From a virus (Duplodnaviria > Caudoviricetes), in the IMG/VR virus record IMGVR_UViG_2667527676_000002, positions 1 to 64,000 of that record: a stretch of 64,000 nt of DNA; one strand, written 5' to 3'. Position numbers and translations under genes: made by a program. Shown here one piece after another: positions 25,712-50,060 of this stretch. Each line of letters begins with the position of its first letter. Position 1 is the first letter of the stretch. A model generated the notes under the pieces. That model did not search any database, had not been told where the DNA came from, and worked only from the letters and a program-made list of their open reading frames with translations.

Positions 25712-25889
25712 CCGATGATGTGGAGCGTGTGCCTCAGTGGCGCACCTCTACGAGAGTGCCTACTTTTTACCCCCAAAGTGTCATGGCAACAACCCCGTTT
25801 CATTGCCACCCTGCGAATATCCCTTGAACGCCTTGGTAATCCCTGGCGAATACTCGGTGAATATCTGCCTACGGTTATCAAGCGCCTCC

Positions 25890-26163
25890 GGCGCTGTCCT
25901 ACTGGTCAGTAGGTGGGTCAGCAGGTGGGACAGATAACCCATTGATTTATATGGCGCTGTCCTACTGTCCCACTTGTCCTACTACTTTCTACGCATATAA
26001 GAGAAGAATAATAAGAGCGCGCGCTGCGCGCGTGCGCGCGATGCGTGCCTATGTGCGGGCGGGTGTGCGAAAGGTGGGACAGTGGGACAGCCCCAGCAGT
26101 GACGGGGCTTTGCGTTGTCCCGCCTCGAAAAACGAAGCGGGACAGAGTAGGACGGTGGGACAG
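25890..26163. repeat. Iteron cluster, probable replication origin
   Basis: About 12 GTRGGACA/TGTCCYAC-like octamers in both orientations, IHF-like site at 25935-25949, AT-rich core. Confidence 0.7.
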
Positions 26164-26175
26164 CGCCCGGCCAAG

Positions 26176-26547
26176 TTAGGCCGCCCGCCGCAGCAGGATT
26201 TCTGCGATGGCCGCGTGGGCCAGGTCGAGCCTGCGGTAATACTGGCGTTTGCCACATCCGCATGCTGCCCATTTCATCGGGTCCGACATGTCGTAATCCG
26301 TGTAATGCAAGCGCACCACCCGCTCGATGGGCGGCGGAAGGTGCTTGTTCACGATCAGCTCAATGTCCGCCGTGCGATCCAGAGGACACCGAGCCCCCGC
26401 CGTGGAGCGAGTCAGGTTTCCCCTTGTCGCCATCAGCATAGCAATCACATTGCTCCCGCCGCTAGCGTTCCCGGCAGAGCCTACGCCATTCGGCGGGTGC
26501 AACTCGGCGGCCCAGGTCCGTAGCATCTCGTCAATTGGCTTGATCAA
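26176..26547 (-). CDS. Q-like late regulator (PA0613-like)
   Basis: IDEMLRTWA..., C-terminal HTH YYRRLDLAH; TTG overlaps the primase stop. Confidence 0.7.
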   Translation of the reverse strand: MIKPIDEMLRTWAAELHPPNGVGSAGNASGGSNVIAMLMATRGNLTRSTAGARCPLDRTADIELIVNKHLPPPIERVVRLHYTDYDMSDPMKWAACGCGKRQYYRRLDLAHAAIAEILLRRAA

Positions 26548-28757: not shown

Positions 28758-28963
28758 CGGCGCCCCCTCCGCTCGTTGAAGGACTGGCATTCAATGCAGG
28801 TTTGGCACCCCGGCACAGCTTCGCGACGGCGCGGCGGGATCGGCTCGCCGCAGCACTCGCACTCATGAGCCGATTCGCCAACCGCTACCAGCGCACGGGC
28901 AGCCAGTGCCGCCTCCATGCGCTCGAGTACCAGGTCATTGGCGTGATCCGCGATATCAGCCAT
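28754..28963 (-). CDS. TraR/DksA C4 zinc-finger protein
   Basis: MADIADHA...CECCGEPIPPRRREAVPGCQTCIECQ. Confidence 0.92.
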   Translation of the reverse strand: MADIADHANDLVLERMEAALAARALVAVGESAHECECCGEPIPPRRREAVPGCQTCIECQSFNERRGRR

Positions 28964-29510
28964 TGCTCACCTCCCCGCGCTCGGCGCCCTTGGTGGTCTG
29001 GTGGACGTAGCGGGCACGCTCGTAGAGGCCGACCGCCGCGCGGATGATGCTCATCGCCAGCTTTTGGGTTTCCGCCAGCTCGGCCGCGTCGATGCGGCCG
29101 TCCTCGATATGGCGCGCGATAGTGGTCGCTGCGTTGGCCGACGTGTGCAGGATCTCGCCGGCGCCGGCAATCAGGCTGGCCGGCACATCCTCGAACTGAA
29201 GCGGCGAAACGAAGAACCACAGGCTGTCGCCCAGCTCGGCATGCAGCGCGTCGAGCACGACCGCCCGCCCCTCGGCCGACACGTACCGCAGGAAGTCGAG
29301 CACGTCGTAGATGTTGAGGATGTGGCTGGTGTGGCTGGGATCGAACTTGTGGGAGGTGGTGGAGACGCTGCGGCCGGTGGAGTGCGCGAAGCCGGTAATG
29401 CCGCCGTGGCACATGCGTTGATTGCGGGCAACGAGGTTGAGCGCTTCGCCCAAGGGAAGCACCTCGCGGCCCATCCGCTCGAACTGATCGGCGAATGAAG
29501 GTCGGGACAT
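28956..29510 (-). CDS. cII: Phage regulatory CII family protein
   Basis: Downstream of cro; DGRIDAAE motif. Confidence 0.7.
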   Translation of the reverse strand: MSRPSFADQFERMGREVLPLGEALNLVARNQRMCHGGITGFAHSTGRSVSTTSHKFDPSHTSHILNIYDVLDFLRYVSAEGRAVVLDALHAELGDSLWFFVSPLQFEDVPASLIAGAGEILHTSANAATTIARHIEDGRIDAAELAETQKLAMSIIRAAVGLYERARYVHQTTKGAERGEVSNG

Positions 29511-29570
29511 GGCAATTATTCCTGTTTACTGCCAGTGCCACGACGCCACCAACCTTGTTAGAGTAGGCGC

Positions 29571-29815
29571 CGTGGTCACATTGCATGGTGGTCACAAGGC
29601 AGATGGCCGCTCTGTGGTGGAAACGCCATCTGCCACGATGGCCGGGTGATCGGTATCCCTGATCACCCGACCGTTACAGCCAGCAGCTCTGTGGTGGAGA
29701 GGCTGGCAACCCCGAGGCATCCGTGCTTCGGGTCTGGGAAGCTCGGCCGGCTGTGGTGGTACTTAGCGTGCTGCTCCAGCCGGCCTGGCTCCCCTCCCTC
29801 GGTGGTGGCGAGGGA
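29571..29815. ncRNA. Structured hairpin array with GTGGTGG/CCACCAC loops
   Basis: Six consecutive stem-loops, four carrying GTGGTGG (29614, 29691, 29753, 29802). Confidence 0.6.
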
Positions 29816-30052
29816 CTAAGCTGCTTTCCTAGAGTGCTTATCTGGAAATGGAAATAGGTCTGGCAGGTCCGGCCGTAATTCATGTGCAGCAACAGCACCT
29901 TTGCATGCTCGCACTACGGCAGGCACACGCTCAGCAGGCACCCCGCGCTTTTTCCATTGGGAAACAGCCATCGGGCTAAGCCCCATTGCTTGCGCGAGCG
30001 CCCGACCACCTCCAGCAGCGCTAATCGCCTTTTCCAATGCAGATTGATCCAT
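29816..30052 (-). CDS. cro: Cro/YdaS-like regulator
   Basis: GGGRALAQAMGLSPMAVSQW HTH, ELRPDL motif; divergent from the repressor. Confidence 0.9.
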   Translation of the reverse strand: MDQSALEKAISAAGGGRALAQAMGLSPMAVSQWKKRGVPAERVPAVVRACKGAVAAHELRPDLPDLFPFPDKHSRKAA

Positions 30053-30125
30053 AAACGCACCGTTTTCTTCGCATTCGTTAATACACATTACGTTTATTTA
30101 AACGCAATGTCTACCCCTGTAAACT
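30052..30125. promoter_or_regulatory. OR operators with PR and PRM promoters
   Basis: TAAAC-N5-GTTTA-like sites at 30052-30066, 30082-30096, 30099-30113; minus-strand TAGACA-N17-TAATGT; plus-strand TAAACT at 30120. Confidence 0.75.
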
Positions 30126-30133
30126 CTGAGTTT

Positions 30134-30874
30134 ATGAGCACATCCGGCACCAGATTGCGCGGCCTCCTCGATGAGAGAGGAATCGCCTATAGCGAGTTCG
30201 CAGCAGCGCTAGGCGTTGAGCCCCAACACGTCAACAATTGGTTCAAGCGCGGGATTCCAAAGGCCCGCGTTTTCGCTATTGCTGACGCACTAGCCGTCAA
30301 TCCTCGCTGGCTGAGCGATGGAACAGATAGCGAATCTCCATCGAATTCCCTAGCCACAGGCGGTGAAAGCTCCCTGCTCTCTCCCCTCGAGCCCTGGGAT
30401 GACAGAACGCCCCTAGAACCGGACGAGGTTGAAGTGCCGCTGTACAAGGAAGTTGAGCTATCCGCCGGAGCCGGCCGAACAGCGGTGCGTGAGATTAAGG
30501 GGAGAAAGCTGCGATTCTCCTACGCTACGCTTCGAAATGCCGGAGTCTCCCCTTCGGCGGCTTTCTGCGCCACGGTCAGCGGGAACAGCATGGAGCCATT
30601 GATTATGAATGGCGCCACCATCGGAGTGGACAAGAGCGCAACCCGCATTCTGGACGGCGAAATCTACGCCCTTGAACATGACGGAATGCTACGAGTGAAA
30701 TACCTATATCGCCTGCCAGCGGGCGGTATGCGCCTGCGGAGCTTCAACACAACAGAGCACCCAGACGAAGAATACTCAGCCGAGCAGATCGAGACCCAAC
30801 AAATCCGAATCCTTGGTTGGGTATTTTGGTGGTCGACGCTCCGAAAAAAGAAAGGCCTTGCCTTCGACCAATAA
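30134..30874 (+). CDS. cI: CI-like repressor (HTH + S24 peptidase)
   Basis: HTH, SAGAG cleavage site, VSGNSMEP and RVKYL catalytic motifs. Confidence 0.95.
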   Translation: MSTSGTRLRGLLDERGIAYSEFAAALGVEPQHVNNWFKRGIPKARVFAIADALAVNPRWLSDGTDSESPSNSLATGGESSLLSPLEPWDDRTPLEPDEVEVPLYKEVELSAGAGRTAVREIKGRKLRFSYATLRNAGVSPSAAFCATVSGNSMEPLIMNGATIGVDKSATRILDGEIYALEHDGMLRVKYLYRLPAGGMRLRSFNTTEHPDEEYSAEQIETQQIRILGWVFWWSTLRKKKGLAFDQ

Positions 30875-30880
30875 ACAAAA

Positions 30881-30922
30881 TAAACAAAACGTATTGACCA
30901 AGCCTTAAACGTTGCGTTTAAT
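30881..30922 (+). promoter_or_regulatory. PL-like promoter with OL operators
   Basis: TTGACC-N17-TTTAAT; perfect TAAAC-GTTGC-GTTTA at 30906-30920 and a weaker site at 30881-30895. Confidence 0.8.
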
Positions 30923-30958
30923 TACCTCGACTCTCCACCACAGAGACGAGGTAACACC

Positions 30959-31150
30959 ATGCAACGTTCCGCCACGGTACACGTCCACCCGGCCTGTACC
31001 TCTTCCCCCCAGCAGATCCAACGCCTCCAGGCCGACACTGGCTGCCTTGTCGTCATCTTCAACGGCAAAGCCCAGCTCGTTGCCAGCCGTACCCCGGGCC
31101 GCCGTCATGCGGTAACCGCCACCTCCCCGTTTGGAGGTGACGCGGCATGA
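30959..31150 (+). CDS. First early-operon protein (63 aa)
   Basis: GAGG RBS; ATGA coupling to the next gene. Confidence 0.7.
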   Translation: MQRSATVHVHPACTSSPQQIQRLQADTGCLVVIFNGKAQLVASRTPGRRHAVTATSPFGGDAA

Positions 31151-31467: not shown

Positions 31468-31761
31468 ATGAAAGACTTGTCCCTGCACCAGGCCGCGCAG
31501 CGCCTCGGCCTGAGCCGTCCCGAGCTGATCAAGCGAATGAAGGCGACCGGCCTGCTCGACAGCAGCAACCTTCCAGCCGTACCGGTCCGCGACCGCCTCT
31601 ACCTGCGCGCAAAGGAAACGTCCTGGCACCACCCCGAACTCGGCATGCAGTACAGCCACTCGACGAAAGTGCGCCCGGCCGGAGTGGCATGGCTGGCCGA
31701 CAAGCTCGGCATCCCCCGAGTCTGCCCGCCGGCGGTCCCGGACCGCCGCGAGGTTGGCTGA
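31468..31761 (+). CDS. Antirepressor KilAC-like DNA-binding protein
   Basis: SLHQAAQRLG HTH; TKVRPAGVAWL. Confidence 0.7.
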   Translation: MKDLSLHQAAQRLGLSRPELIKRMKATGLLDSSNLPAVPVRDRLYLRAKETSWHHPELGMQYSHSTKVRPAGVAWLADKLGIPRVCPPAVPDRREVG

Positions 31762-31915
31762 CGAGCCCCGGCCCCGCGAATACGCCCGCCAGATCGTCGC
31801 CCTTCGAACCAAAGAGGAACGCAGGGCGGCCCTGGAGCGGGTGCCGGAACACCTTCGGGAACTTGTACGAACCCACGTAGAGATCGCCTGGAACCACCCC
31901 AAGGGGAACAAATGA
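31754..31915 (+). CDS. Small protein (53 aa, below the ORF-track cut-off)
   Basis: TTG ADEPRPREYARQIVALRTKEERRAALERVPEHLRELVRTHV...; fills the operon gap and overlaps both neighbours. Confidence 0.65.
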   Translation: MADEPRPREYARQIVALRTKEERRAALERVPEHLRELVRTHVEIAWNHPKGNK

Positions 31916-32456: not shown

Positions 32457-32506
32457 CCACACCGGCCGCCACCACCGGCCATCCACCACCAATGGAGAAA
32501 ACCACC

Positions 32507-45466: not shown

Positions 45467-45750
45467 GAGAACATCACCGCATATAGAGTGTAATTCGCTG
45501 TTACATCACCGGACCAACCAAACGTAATAGTCGAGCCGCTAATGGTATGCCTGGGAATCCAAGATCTAGAATCCGGCGTATTGCAGACGACAAACATGAC
45601 ACCTTTAGAACCGTCGAACCCAGGGACCGTAACTGAAAGTCCCTGAGGAATGTTCCCCAAGTCCCGACGATAGACCATCCTCAATGAGTAATTGTTGCTG
45701 TCAAAGAGTATTGAGCCGCCGGCCGAACGCGTTCTCATTCCGTAACTCAT
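45463..45750 (-). CDS. Small tail-tip accessory protein
   Basis: MSYGMRTR..ILFDS; coupled to J. Confidence 0.7.
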   Translation of the reverse strand: MSYGMRTRSAGGSILFDSNNYSLRMVYRRDLGNIPQGLSVTVPGFDGSKGVMFVVCNTPDSRSWIPRHTISGSTITFGWSGDVTANYTLYAVMFS

Positions 45751-48700
45751 ACATCAAGATTCCCGATCTGGACTCGAAGCACCAAGTTTCCGTCATACAC
45801 TTTTATTACCTCTGCAGTCTGGCGCATAAACCCTCCCGACGTTGCGCTGTTCATTGTGAACGCGCCGCCCTTATCCAACTTCCACAGCGGCTCACCGTTG
45901 GCACCGAGGGCGGTCGACTGAATCACGTTGCCGATCTTCGCGTTGGTGATCGAGCCGTCCTGGATCATCGCGTTGTTGATGAACATCTGGCCGCCGACGA
46001 TCGAGACCGGCGCCACGGTCTGCCCGCTGGAACTGTTGAACCAGAGGAAGCGATCAGCCTGGAACGCCATGGTCGTCACGCTCGTACCGCTGTCGAAGCC
46101 CAGCTGCCATCCCGCCGCATACTTCTGCCCGTTGGTATGCGCCTGGAGCTTCACGCTGTAGAGCGCCTTGACGTTGCCATCCAGCGAGGTAACCGCTTGA
46201 GAGGTGGTCTGGATGTTCGCCTCGTTGGTATCGGTGCGCGCGCTGACGGTATCCACCCGCTGCCCCAAGGCGCTGTCCGCGTTGGCGCGGACGGTCTGTT
46301 CGGTGCTGATCGCCGAGGCGTTGCTCGCGACCTGGCTGGATAGCTGATCCAGGCGTTGGACGGTGACAGCATTGTTCGACGCAACGACCGACTCCACGGT
46401 GGCGATCCTGCCCTCCGCCGTCCCGGTCCGCGCCTCCAGCAAGCTCGTCCGCTTCGCCTGCGCTTCGTCCTCGTTCGCCCGCACGGTGACTTCGGTGGCG
46501 GCTCGAGCAATGGTGTCCCAGCCCTTCAGCGCATCCGCCTTCTCTCCCGTCGCGGGCTCCCGGCGGGCAGCAGCCTGCAGAACATCCAGGCTCGAAGCAG
46601 CCGCCTCGACCTTGCCGTCGAGCTCGGTGATATCCGCGGTGTTGGTTGCCACCTGCTGGGCCAGGCCGTTGGCCGTCTCGATCGACTGTCCGATGTCGGC
46701 CCAGTAGGTCGCGTTCGGCGGCGAGGCGTTGAGCGGCACCGCCTGCTTCGCTTGATACAGCCGGTTGCCGACCCGCACGATATCGTTCTTCGCGTAGGTC
46801 TTCGTCGGGTCGTAGGCCAGCACATCGGTCAGATTGTCGATCTGGTCCTGCAGGCCACTGATATCGACCTGCATCTGGTCGATGTCGGCGAAGAACTGCT
46901 CGCCCAGCGCGGACTCGACGTACTCCTGGGTGATCAACTGGTTGTACTCGCTCGCATCCGTCGAGCTGATGCCGTCGACCCAGGCCGACCATGGACCGAC
47001 GTTGCCGGTCCGGTCGATCAGCCGCCCGCGGAAGGCCAAGCGAGCGCCGGCCGCCAGCGAGGTCAGCGTGTGGGTATCGGTCGGGTACGCGAACAAGCCC
47101 AAGGCAGTTGCGTTCTGTTCGCTGCCGCCCGGGGTAACCGACTGCTGGATCTCGGTGTAAGCGGTGTCCGCCGCGCCACTGGCCGGGAATCCCCACTCCA
47201 GGCCGATTTTCCACGGTCCGCTGGTGGAACGCAGGAACGCCAGCGCCGGCGGCACGCCGGTCTTGCCGCTGAGTTGGGTCAGGATCGAACTCTTCCAGGC
47301 CGACGTGATGTCGAACGCCGACACCGCGCGCACTCGCGCCAGATATCCACCTGCGTAGATGCCGGTCACATCGACGCTGGTGGTGCCGGCACGCGGCAGG
47401 CGGATCCAGTTGCCGCTGTCCTTCTTCCACTCCACGTCATAGGCGACAGCCCCTTCCACGGGTGGCCAGGCGATGGTCATCGTGCTGACCGCCAACCCCT
47501 GATCGAACTGGTAGTGCGAGGTCACCGTGACGCTTGCCGGCGGAGGCACCGTGGTGATCGGGATGACGCTGATCGGGCGGCTCTCCAACTTAGCGCCAGT
47601 GTCGATCGCTGAGAACTTCCCGGGCTCGTACTGCAGAGCGGTGATCTCGAAGACACCCCGCTCTGGCTGGCTGACTTTCATCACACGGTAGAGCGGCACC
47701 GCCAGGTCGGCGGCATCGAGGGTCCAGACCAGTTCCGGTAGCGGAGTCTCGCTGTAGGCTGTCGTCACGGTCACCGCGCGCCCGGCGACCGACTGCACGG
47801 TTCGCGCCTCAGCCTTACCACTGGGCAGGTTCAGGAGCAGGCGGTCGCCAGCCTTCGCCTGAGTATCGCGATCCAAGGTGATCACTCGGCCAGCAACCGC
47901 CGAGATCCTCCCGCCGATCTCCCGTCCAGCCAACAGCGCATCAGCCACCGGAATCACCCATCCCGGCAGCGGTATCGCTCCATCCATCCCGGTACGGAAC
48001 GTTACCGTGCGATCCTGGCTGTTGGTCAGGATCGCCCATTTTCCGCGCCGCTGGGCCTCACTCTCGCGGGTGCAGCCAATGGCTGCCACCTCGACCGGGT
48101 TGTCGCCGTAACGCCGCTGCAGGCGCTTATCGGTGGCCACAGCCACGTCGGTGTCGTAGTTGTTCGCCGGATTGTCGTAGCTGACCAAGGCACGGCTGTA
48201 GCGAGTGCGCTCACTGGCCGAGCCGTAGCTGAAGCGGCCGTCGATGACATTGGCCCGGGTGTAGGCGAAATCGACGTCGGTGGCGCGCGGAATATCCGCC
48301 TGGATCTTCAGTTGGCCCTGGGCCCAGTACGCCATGCCGCGGTAGATAGCGGTGAGGTCGCGCAGCAGTTCCCAGGCCCCGGCGCGGCTTTGCAGGTTCA
48401 GGTTGCAGGTGTGGCGCGGCTCCTGGCCACCCTTCCCATCCGGCACCAACTGGTCGCAGTACTGGGAAATCCGGTACATCTCCCAACGGTCTACCATCCA
48501 GGCCTTGATGCGTTTACCCACACCGAAGCGATCGTTGGTCACGATGTCGTAGGTGTGCCAGACCGGGTTGTCGGTCCAGGCCTGTTTCATCGTGCCGTCC
48601 CAGATGCCGAGGTAGGCCCGGGTCTCCGGATCGTAATTGCTCGGCACTTGAACCTTCCGCCCGCGGCAGTCGACTGTGACAGCCGGAATGTTGCTGAACT

Positions 48701-49409
48701 GCTCTGCGCTGAACTCGACATACAGCAGGGCCGTGTTCGGGTAGCGCAGCTTCGCGTCGATCACCTCGGTGTAGCCGGCGATCAGCATGGTGTCGGCGAT
48801 ACGGTTGTTGTTCTGGTTCGGCGTCAGGCGCCGCACGCGCAACTGCCAGCCACTGGTGGCCGCCGGCAGGTCGATTCGGCGGGAGCGCTCGTAGCGGGTG
48901 GTGGTCTTGCCATCGACGGCCTCGCGCAGCACCTCCTGATAGGCGCCGCCGTCGGTGGCCAGATCTACGGCGTATTCGATCCGGTACCCGCCGATGTTGC
49001 CGTTGGTGTCCTGCTGCTGGAGCGCCGGCCAGGCGAAGCGCAGACGCACTGCGGAAAGCTGGGTATTGCTCAGCGAGCGCACCCAAGGCGTATCGCTGCG
49101 CAACTCGACGTTGACACTGGTTTCGTTCTCAACGGCAGGGATGCCCGGGATGTAGTCCTGGTCCACCGCTCCCGCGCGCCACTCCCACTTAACGTTCGGG
49201 AAGTTCAGGTTACCGCTCGGGTCCATCAGCGGGGTGTTGTCGAGGTAGATATCGCGCTCGCTCGGAACGCCGGCGAACTCGCCCTCGCCCACGGCGAGCA
49301 GAATCTTGGCCATCGCGACCGAGCGCAGGCTGTCGGGTGCCTCGACCGGCTGTTTCGGTTTGCTACTGCCGCCCTTGCGGCCGGTCAGGTGCTGGTGAAC
49401 TGCGCCCAT
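45747..49409 (-). CDS. Central tail fibre/host specificity protein J
   Basis: GRKGGSSK, VGEGEF, YPNTAL, AWTDNPVW, C-terminal RVQIGNL. Confidence 0.95.
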   Translation of the reverse strand: MGAVHQHLTGRKGGSSKPKQPVEAPDSLRSVAMAKILLAVGEGEFAGVPSERDIYLDNTPLMDPSGNLNFPNVKWEWRAGAVDQDYIPGIPAVENETSVNVELRSDTPWVRSLSNTQLSAVRLRFAWPALQQQDTNGNIGGYRIEYAVDLATDGGAYQEVLREAVDGKTTTRYERSRRIDLPAATSGWQLRVRRLTPNQNNNRIADTMLIAGYTEVIDAKLRYPNTALLYVEFSAEQFSNIPAVTVDCRGRKVQVPSNYDPETRAYLGIWDGTMKQAWTDNPVWHTYDIVTNDRFGVGKRIKAWMVDRWEMYRISQYCDQLVPDGKGGQEPRHTCNLNLQSRAGAWELLRDLTAIYRGMAYWAQGQLKIQADIPRATDVDFAYTRANVIDGRFSYGSASERTRYSRALVSYDNPANNYDTDVAVATDKRLQRRYGDNPVEVAAIGCTRESEAQRRGKWAILTNSQDRTVTFRTGMDGAIPLPGWVIPVADALLAGREIGGRISAVAGRVITLDRDTQAKAGDRLLLNLPSGKAEARTVQSVAGRAVTVTTAYSETPLPELVWTLDAADLAVPLYRVMKVSQPERGVFEITALQYEPGKFSAIDTGAKLESRPISVIPITTVPPPASVTVTSHYQFDQGLAVSTMTIAWPPVEGAVAYDVEWKKDSGNWIRLPRAGTTSVDVTGIYAGGYLARVRAVSAFDITSAWKSSILTQLSGKTGVPPALAFLRSTSGPWKIGLEWGFPASGAADTAYTEIQQSVTPGGSEQNATALGLFAYPTDTHTLTSLAAGARLAFRGRLIDRTGNVGPWSAWVDGISSTDASEYNQLITQEYVESALGEQFFADIDQMQVDISGLQDQIDNLTDVLAYDPTKTYAKNDIVRVGNRLYQAKQAVPLNASPPNATYWADIGQSIETANGLAQQVATNTADITELDGKVEAAASSLDVLQAAARREPATGEKADALKGWDTIARAATEVTVRANEDEAQAKRTSLLEARTGTAEGRIATVESVVASNNAVTVQRLDQLSSQVASNASAISTEQTVRANADSALGQRVDTVSARTDTNEANIQTTSQAVTSLDGNVKALYSVKLQAHTNGQKYAAGWQLGFDSGTSVTTMAFQADRFLWFNSSSGQTVAPVSIVGGQMFINNAMIQDGSITNAKIGNVIQSTALGANGEPLWKLDKGGAFTMNSATSGGFMRQTAEVIKVYDGNLVLRVQIGNLDV

Positions 49410-49968: not shown

Positions 49969-49998
49969 AGTGATGCTCCATCCGCCTGAAAAAGAGAA

Positions 49999-50060
49999 GT
50001 GCAGGCAGGGGCGTAGGCGGAGCTGGACCGACCCTTTTCGGTAGCGAGCCTAGCCTGCAC
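49999..50060 (-). ncRNA. c4-like structured antisense RNA element
   Basis: 8-bp closing stem; internal TCCGCCT and GAAAA are complementary to TTTTCAGGCGGA next to the KilA-N RBS. Confidence 0.6.

Follow-up and report, generated by a model that had tools for sequence, protein, structure and literature searches.

The gap between the cro-like and cII-like genes of a lambdoid Pseudomonas aeruginosa prophage raises the question of what is encoded by a row of hairpins that share one loop sequence, and on which strand that sequence is read. The window, by which is meant the whole stretch of 64,000 nucleotides that was analysed, has the lambda arrangement, with PR directed leftwards and PL rightwards, and over 29450-31000 it is 98.8% identical to phage LPPA36 and 94.4% identical to vB_Pae_U5. 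The Cro-like gene (29816..30052, - strand), which carries the Pfam domains YdaS_toxin and P22_Cro, is separated by a gap of 305 bp (29511-29815) from the gene for a CII-like activator (28956..29510, - strand; Pfam Phage_CP76, 1.7e-9; PHROG 101), and the array therefore lies upstream of cII on the PR-type transcript. On the same strand, 3' of cII, are found a TraR/DksA-like zinc-finger gene, a 748-aa primase-helicase gene, then a holin gene and finally the terminase and structural genes, such that the PR-type operon reaches the late genes. No Q homologue was seen in this operon, and hence some form of antitermination device is plausible. The CI-like repressor gene, encoding HTH and S24 peptidase domains (30134..30874, + strand), begins 320 nt 3' of the array and is on the strand of the RNA proposed below. 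It is followed by a PL-type promoter, TTGACC-17 nt-TTTAAT (30894..30922, + strand), overlapped by an operator-like AAACG-N4-CGTTT; the counterpart of this promoter in the related locus L118 scores 10 of 12. The order of cro, gap, cII and opposite early leader had been outlined in an earlier note made from the DNA letters, and is borne out by both the coordinates and the Pfam assignments.

The gap consists of a row of six stem-loops, four of which bear GTGGTGG on the + strand. The body of the array (29571..29815) presents GUGGUGG loops when read on the + strand; read on the - strand it forms the cro-cII leader of the PR-type transcript and presents CCACCAC loops. Hairpin 1, nearest cro, is TCCCTCG-GTGGTGG-CGAGGGA (29795..29815, heptamer at 29802), and its end is the exact edge of the exchangeable immunity module. 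Hairpin 2 has a long imperfect stem (29736-29753/29777-29794, 18 nt at 83%) with GTGGTGG at 29753; in relatives CACCAC sits in the apical loop instead. Hairpin 3 (29711..29732) has a 9-bp stem with the loop CGGA on the - strand (UCCG on the + strand), and all 8 of its pairs have changes on both sides among relatives. Hairpin 4, GCCAGC-AG-CTCT-GTGGTGG-AGAG-GCTGGC (29679..29707), carries the heptamer at 29691 and has an outer stem that covaries. Hairpin 5 (29640..29672) has a 12-bp stem, an apex of GGA on the - strand (UCC on the + strand) and compensatory changes in Haddon, U5 and distant relatives. Finally, hairpin 6, nearest cII, has a 10-bp stem (29598-29607/29625-29634, 10/10 complementary) with an apical GTGGTGG at 29614; covariation of this stem is seen in L022, L088 and L114, and L086 no longer has the motif.

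All six of these hairpins, four with GTGGTGG and two without, had been located correctly in the earlier note. Its description of the latter two as motif-less has to be withdrawn, as they have a conserved loop of their own, which is GGA on the cII-sense strand and UCC on the + strand. At the predicted 5' end of the + strand RNA lies a direct repeat, GTGGTCAC...GTGGTCAC (29572..29601, + strand; 16 nt start to start), that is kept in aeruginosa- and Azotobacter-type relatives. Counting both strands, GTGGTGG occurs 27 times in the window against 10.4 +/- 3.4 expected, a number reached by 0 of 100 shuffles, and four of the copies fall within 195 bp on one strand. A coding reading of the array was rejected: a 42-aa ORF is annotated there in phage Haddon and is broken in more distant relatives.

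The same motif recurs at the start of the opposite operon. The PL leader hairpin, CCTCG-A-CTCT-CCACCAC-AGAG-A-CGAGG (30925..30951, + strand), contains in its 3' arm the GAGG ribosome site of the first PL gene, ORF1, and the predicted PL start (~30929) falls within its 5' arm. The reverse complement of 29687-29701, in hairpin 4, is 100% identical to 30931-30945 over 15 nt, as the earlier note had reported, and its claim of a shared motif in the opposite early leader likewise stands, the motif there being a CCACCAC loop. The first 15-16 nt of the predicted PL mRNA would thus be the complement of the hairpin 4 apex, ending five bases before the ORF1 GAGG. Two more CCACCAC-loop hairpins (32464-32480 and 32479-32495, + strand) are located further along the PL operon, 3' of a PrtN/excisionase-like gene and 5' of the ribosome site of a gene for a membrane protein. 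The first of these is kept in relatives with covarying stems; there the PL operon contains GGCUG-YCACCAC-CAGCC, the stems of which covary freely, 10-25 nt 5' of the ribosome site of the conserved membrane-protein gene.

ORF1 (30959..31150, + strand) encodes a conserved small protein of 63 aa with a His/Thr-rich N-terminus. It belongs to PHROG 13491, a family of unknown function, has no Pfam match, gave no lead in sequence searches of the ESM Atlas or PDB, and has an AlphaFold model with a pLDDT of 58. The earlier note's observation that there is no N-like protein is upheld by these results, ORF1 being the first PL gene. The PL operon is syntenic, with ORF1, ORF2, an ANT/HTH-like ORF3, a 53-aa ORF4 and a PrtN-like gene each found in at least 31 of 33 loci. 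ORF4, which has a median identity of 72% among loci, is modelled as a three-helix bundle (pLDDT 82.6) for which Foldseek gave no PDB match at E <= 0.001 (best E 3.8), and no sequence match was obtained either.

The array recurs in more than 100 related prophage loci of Pseudomonas and Azotobacter, including loci found by protein alone. Among deposited phages it is seen at the DNA level only in LPPA36, Haddon and U5. Haddon is instructive, since its repressor, cro and operators differ from those of the window, whereas the array and the PL leader hairpin are the same, and the break-points coincide exactly with the outermost hairpins. An exact scan of IMG/VR with the 15-mer returned 113 stretches, 22 of them with both copies (24 loci once the deposited phages L001 and L002 are included). 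The two copies are 1241-3729 nt apart, which indicates that the immunity regions in between differ. Across relatives the loop stays (Y)CACCAC while the stems covary, so that the conserved loop on variable stems suggested in the earlier note is indeed seen in homologous prophages of Pseudomonas and Azotobacter. In the distant loci L022, L075, L086, L088 and L114, compensatory changes rewrite the stems and the loops persist.

To avoid the bias of a motif search, the ORF1 protein family was used as a query. Among 1.84 billion proteins it has 10 representatives at E <= 0.001, six of which are 58-77 aa long, and a scan of species genomes with the ORF1 peptide pattern found 33 loci, distributed over many species of Pseudomonas and two Azotobacter. 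The leader hairpin stands directly 5' of the ORF1 start codon in 33/33 of these loci, with a loop of ACCAC in 30 and one-base variants in the remaining three. A CII homologue (~35% identity) is present in 28/33, and the same ordered series of hairpins folds in the 400 nt 5' of it. Along the PR transcript the family order runs from hairpin 1 with the loop (AC)CACCACA, through hairpin 2 with an apex of CACCACA, hairpin 3 with CGGA, hairpin 4 with CACCACA or UACCAC on an inner stem resembling CUCU/AGAG, and hairpin 5 with CGGA or GGA, to hairpin 6 with YCACCAC, followed by a small hairpin that presents the cII ribosome site. A scan of IMG/VR anchored on CII yielded 80 loci, of which 78 have at least one sense-oriented CACCAC-loop hairpin no more than 420 nt upstream of cII, with a single antisense-oriented one in the whole set. 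An ORF1 match lies within the 4-kb flank in 66 of these loci, and 65 of the 66 have the leader hairpin.

In the 33 protein-found loci, sense-oriented CACCAC-loop hairpins outnumber antisense ones by 59 to 2 on the PL side and by 58 to 2 on the PR side, or 117 to 4 over both early operons, although these loci are related and the counts do not represent independent events. The plain motif is less skewed in the same loci (192/36 for PL and 161/57 for PR). The array is a real, conserved RNA element family of lambdoid prophages of Pseudomonas and Azotobacter. The Rfam search proposed in the earlier note was run with the covariance models of Rfam 15 on the window and six relatives; there was no match at the gathering score, and at E values up to 10 the matches were at chance level and belonged to unrelated families. 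A full-text literature search, in which papers were represented mostly by listings and abstracts, yielded no description of the element, and none appears in the part of the phage YA3 paper (PMC7326022) that was covered. Within that coverage the element is previously undescribed, having neither an Rfam family nor a description found in the literature.

The strand on which the array functions does not follow from its folding. The region 29511-29830 folds at -157.1 kcal/mol on the - strand (z -6.5) and at -166.5 kcal/mol on the + strand (z -6.6), and in each case 0 of 100 shuffles was as good. Read in the cII sense, the alignment has compensatory changes in 22/36 consensus pairs. The + strand reading of 19 diverse sequences has 78 consensus pairs, 40 with changes on both sides, against 8-18 such pairs in slid controls, and 93.8% of its cells are paired compared with 85.9% in shuffles, 0 of 500 of which reached as high a value. 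The Watson-Crick covariation is thus strong, but it is blind to strand. Wobble-pair tests of strand were rejected, as they were either contradictory or biased by the way in which the structure had been derived: in a neutral count over stems the cII-sense strand has 87 G.U pairs and the + strand 61, whereas in the motif hairpins the respective numbers are 13 and 30. The contention of the earlier note that G.U pairs favour + strand folding is therefore not established. The consensus energy is lower on the + strand (-153 against -135), an advantage that is expected because this strand is G-rich. The retention of GGA in the cII-sense loops of hairpins 3 and 5 across variants in loop size fits a protein site on the sense strand better than a tetraloop on the + strand.

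Two signals outside the hairpins are also relevant to the strand. A putative + strand promoter (29535..29564) is made up of a weak -35-like GTGCCA (29535-29540), an 18-nt spacer, a TG (29556-29557) and a -10-like TAGAGT (29559-29564), with a predicted start near 29571 that adjoins the cII ribosome site. Of 79 distinct sequences (from 108 loci), 72 have the pattern TGnTAnAnT at a distance of 44-51 nt from the start codon of cII, on the opposite strand to that gene, and 7 lack it; the pattern has 0 occurrences on the cII-sense strand and 0 in shuffles. Its fixed letters are the positions that sigma-70 reads in an extended -10 element, and the letters in between vary. In fluorescens-type loci the promoter-like block forms the 5' arm of a hairpin of which only the 3' arm varies, which points to a constraint on the sequence apart from pairing. 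A scan for consensus promoters does not call a + strand promoter here, and the conserved block could instead serve the hairpin at the cII ribosome site on the other strand. A role of the conserved CTGCCAGTGCCAC block as a CII box was rejected, as its 43 matches in the window against 33 expected show no enrichment.

At the far end of the array an intrinsic terminator is found on the + strand in 72 of 99 distinct sequences, and no intrinsic terminator was found on the sense strand of those sequences. In most of them the distance from the start codon of cII to the beginning of the terminator is 286-307 nt, with outliers at 369 and 575; that of L118 was confirmed by a terminator scan, and that of the Azotobacter locus L140 has a different stem. 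The predicted + strand RNAs are accordingly 253-281 nt long. The window has no intrinsic terminator in the array or just after it. Fourteen RNA runs contain the stretch as long contigs of flat depth (pieces of 29, 22 and 14 kb), which may represent carry-over of DNA. In run X22, for which raw reads were searched, the sole match was a 33-nt host paralogue, and the prophage is lacking. Promoter-like and terminator signals that bracket exactly the array are hard to explain by sense-strand hairpins alone, and a + strand RNA is favoured for this reason. As the PR transcript must cross the array in order to reach cII, both RNAs probably exist, and the + strand and sense-hairpin readings are compatible rather than exclusive.

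The relationship between the array and the PL leader can also be examined as pairing. In the window the hairpin 4 apex and the PL leader are exactly complementary over 15 nt, and exact complementarity of at least 10 nt is found in 76 of 87 distinct pairs of leader and array, with a maximum of 18 nt, although within a locus it is only slightly greater than between loci (12.5 against 11.6 nt). A rare UU-ACCAC variant of the loop appears in the PL leader and hairpin 4 together in 9/9 combinations, which form one clade and amount to roughly one event, and the other hairpins of those loci keep CACCAC. Positions 5' of ACCAC in the PL loop vary without a matching change in hairpin 4. The duplex of the + strand RNA with the PL 5' end has an energy of -59.9 kcal/mol, compared with -47.2 +/- 4.1 for shuffles, of which 1 in 200 had an energy as low; the sense-array control reached -36.8.

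The reading preferred here, at a probability of about 0.45, is that the array specifies a structured + strand RNA whose GUGGUGG loops would pair with CCACCAC loops present both in the PL mRNA and in the cII leader. The observations from which it starts are conserved structure, motif orientation, promoter-like and terminator signals, and complementarity. Some 250 nt in length, the RNA encoded in the cro-cII gap would share its strand with cI and the PL operon and be antisense to the leader between cro and cII; its transcription would begin near 29571, from the conserved extended -10 promoter, if this fires as predicted. The RNA would fold into six hairpins, four of them exposing GUGGUGG, and pairing may begin with kissing contacts between these loops and CCACCAC hairpin loops. 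The targets would be of two kinds: the cII leader of the PR-type transcript, which is complementary throughout, and, in the PL operon, the first 15-16 nt of the mRNA together with the hairpin before the ribosome site of the membrane-protein gene. Such pairing is envisaged to lower the translation or stability of early lytic messages and thereby couple both early operons, the direction of the effect being a presumption. In most relatives the RNA is predicted to stop at its own terminator and so to be a discrete small RNA. In the window, which has no terminator, it probably runs on, antisense through cro into cI, and, with the array as leader, would then be similar to the establishment transcript that starts at P_RE in lambda. 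The second model of the earlier note, a multi-loop RNA from the + strand, thus gains an extended -10-like element and, in most relatives, a terminator on the same strand, and loses its argument from G.U pairs. A fuller version of the preferred reading is rather doubtful: a multivalent RNA with up to four identical GUGGUGG heptaloops would hold the cII leader in cis and both the PL 5' end and the ribosome-site hairpin in trans, such that both early operons would be coupled by RNA alone in a large family of lambdoid phages of Pseudomonas and Azotobacter without N and Q. Host physiology would enter the choice between lysis and lysogeny through GGA hairpins of the RsmA type on the other strand.

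It is also conceivable, if on the unlikely side, that a single trans-acting factor binds the sense-strand CCACCAC loops in the two early transcripts. This factor might be a phage protein (ORF1 or the 53-aa ORF4), a protein of the host or RNA polymerase itself; the outcome would be nut- or put-like antitermination or translational control, with the GGA hairpins adding RsmA/CsrA control of cII. In favour of this, the motif hairpins of both divergent early operons are sense-oriented (117 against 4), and they occupy the positions of lambda nutL/nutR and HK022 putL/putR, right after the PL start and right after cro. They also travel with the flanking genes and not with the immunity module, and ORF1 sits behind the leader hairpin in every one of the 33 loci found by protein and, among the 66 loci of the CII-anchored scan that have an ORF1 match, in 65. 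Moreover, the PL-side hairpins adjoin ribosome sites, and GGA is kept in hairpins 3 and 5 and in the hairpin at the cII ribosome site; the hairpin 3 loop of the window fits the CsrA/RsmA consensus. Set against this, the early leaders have no boxA within 2 mismatches, the loops are not of the boxB type, and neither ORF1 nor ORF4 has a family, fold or structural match suggestive of RNA binding. No intrinsic terminator, the one type for which the early operons were scanned, lies downstream to be overcome, and in fluorescens-type loci a hairpin separates cro from the array. A sense-strand factor would, furthermore, leave unexplained both the promoter-like and terminator signals of the opposite strand and the restriction of the UU variant to hairpin 4 and the PL leader.

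Two further readings dispense with a loop-specific reader of RNA. One is that the array is a structural leader, in which the hairpins would be processing sites for RNase III or RNase E, would have a stabilising role or would insulate transcription in the region equivalent to the lambda y region, with the shared apex having been spread by duplication or gene conversion. The very stable fold on both strands would suit such a leader, as would the identity between hairpin 4 and the PL leader, which reaches into the stems over up to 18 nt in the manner of gene conversion, and the PL hairpin is at the extreme 5' end of its mRNA, where hairpins protect messages. The explanation is nevertheless improbable, since the loop is kept on wholly changed stems at six or more hairpin positions in Pseudomonas and Azotobacter, and since the strict orientation bias and the second type of loop (GGA/UCC) indicate reading that is specific for sequence. 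The other places the function in the DNA, where direct GTGG-type repeats would act as iterons or priming signals for the P4-alpha-like primase-helicase, or as sites on the non-template strand. Six GTGGT(G/C) repeats in the same orientation do lie within 250 bp, about 0.7 kb upstream of the 748-aa primase-helicase gene, and on either side of the immunity region the motif would be carried by the template of the lagging strand. Variable stems, compensatory changes and an asymmetric loop, however, imply a single-stranded hairpin in place of a site bound as duplex, the hairpins are found at mRNA 5' ends and ribosome sites, and the stems are probably too long for a transcription bubble; a DNA-level function is accordingly very improbable.

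Temperate Pseudomonas phages of the type found in the window are common, with more than 100 loci fetched from P. aeruginosa, the fluorescens group and Azotobacter, and they are without recognisable N and Q antiterminators. A conserved structured RNA of about 250-300 nt sits at the very position that nutR, tR1 and P_RE occupy in lambda, and the opposite operon starts with a matching motif, which makes the element a testable candidate for the missing control element and one that may link the two early operons of the phage. Should the preferred kissing-loop reading be true, a multivalent design with a shared loop would be added to the regulatory RNAs of phages, and a compact RNA part would become available for the engineering of Pseudomonas. 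Should a protein bind the loops instead, the result would be a new system of RNA recognition in early phage transcription.

The element can be compared with several known systems, the classical N/nut arrangement among them. The earlier note had offered nut/boxB-like or put-like antitermination sites as its first model, of which the nut-like positions stand and the classical N/nut form is not supported, no boxA in the early leaders, no boxB-type loop and no N-like protein having been found. With an 11-nt boxA consensus and up to 2 mismatches, there are 9 matches in the window against 7.5 expected and none in 29511-29815 or the PL leader, and the loops of the window and its relatives are 7-8 nt long, (Y)CACCAC(A), in contrast to a GNRA-like boxB pentaloop. 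As with lambda nutL/nutR and HK022 putL/putR, one element follows the PL start and one follows cro, and these belong to the flanking module and not to the immunity module. Unlike a single nut site or the two-hairpin put site, the array has 4-6 hairpins. In HK022 the put RNA comprises two hairpins in some 70 nt and works in cis on RNA polymerase, with no phage protein involved. The array differs in its six hairpins and the PL element in its single one, and the two systems are likened by position.

On the cII-sense strand the sequence has features of CsrA/RsmA targets, namely GGA loops, one of them at the ribosome site, which would make it a candidate target. Unlike typical targets, it has only two or three GGA sites, interleaved with a different loop motif. 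The predicted + strand promoter is like lambda P_RE in its place beside the cII start, in its direction away from cII and antisense to the PR transcript and, in the window, in being directed towards cI, but in most relatives the RNA is predicted to terminate before cro, unlike a P_RE transcript. In contrast to OOP RNA, which lies at the 3' end of cII, the + strand RNA overlaps the cII 5' leader.

In the mechanism proposed, the element appears closest to the c4 RNA of P1/P7, to the CI RNA of P4 and to those antisense RNAs of plasmids that act through kissing loops, an analogy that involves no match in sequence or covariance model. Both c4 and P4 CI are immunity RNAs, and each pairs with complementary sites that are repeated in an early leader. 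The RNA proposed here would similarly be a small structured phage RNA with several sites on early transcripts, on the same strand as its trans target. Unlike those RNAs it has no Rfam match, it has a putative promoter of its own in the cro-cII gap of a lambdoid CI/Cro phage, and it would use one heptamer, repeated in up to four loops, against targets in both divergent early operons. RNA I/RNA II of ColE1 and CopA/CopT of R1 exert antisense control through kissing loops, their loops differ from one another, and they act as cis-antisense pairs only. As in those plasmids, stem-loops with loops of 6-7 nt face fully complementary loops encoded on the opposite strand; unlike theirs, the loops of the array share one sequence, which is also present at unlinked sites.

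The hairpin in the leader of the PL operon (30925-30951, + strand), which carries a CCACCAC loop and lies directly before ORF1, has an outer stem in which an anti-ribosome-site arm is paired with the GAGG ribosome site of ORF1, both in the window and just 5' of ORF1 in the 33 related loci (L116-L148). The outer stem shows covariation, for instance in loci L141 and L124. Since the predicted PL start falls within the 5' arm, the complete hairpin could be restricted to transcripts that read through from cI. In such lysogenic read-through transcripts ORF1 would be silenced by the full leader hairpin, and in PL-initiated mRNA, where the full hairpin would not form, ORF1 would still be translatable.

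ORF1 itself (30959-31150) and its homologues share a conserved C-terminal end, GG-x-A-A, of which the Ala-Ala resembles protease-targeting tails. In this family the stop codon overlaps the start of the next gene (ATGA), and in many relatives codons 2-4 (CAC ACC ACN) themselves fold, together with the start codon, into a hairpin with a CACCAC loop. Among the PL proteins, the highest conservation is seen for the product of a 53-aa ORF with a TTG start (31754-31915, + strand), which is annotated in phage Haddon only and is found in 31 of the 33 loci with a median identity of 72%. It is modelled as a basic bundle of three helices (pLDDT 82.6) and has neither a structural nor a family match.

Operator-like inverted repeats, AAACG-N4-CGTTT, are present at both early promoters (30052-30065, 30095-30113 and 30907-30920), and other repeats occupy the same places in phages with different immunity regions. 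One strain (sequencing run X1, contig record 2) contains a second related prophage that matches the window only at hairpin 4 of the cro-cII array (29671-29712) and at the PL leader (30925-30951), with 1133 differing letters between the two matches. It is another immunity type set between the same two flanking elements.

Between cro and hairpin 1, the fluorescens-type loci among L116-L148 all have, on the cro-sense strand, an unvarying A6 run in front of their terminator hairpin, because of which the terminator might be weakly active in both directions.

The sole Rfam match in the window is an int-alpA RNA motif (49985-50060, - strand), which scores 36.0 bits where the gathering score is 35.8 and lies within a second mobile-element-like region and beside a 1220-aa ORF (45747-49409). 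Finally, two + strand ORFs of 66 and 193 aa (25737-26523), with lower third-position GC and without a match in the family search, interrupt the - strand operon in the manner of a moron, with the primase gene on one side and the holin gene on the other, and enclose a terminator-like hairpin (26032-26018, - strand).
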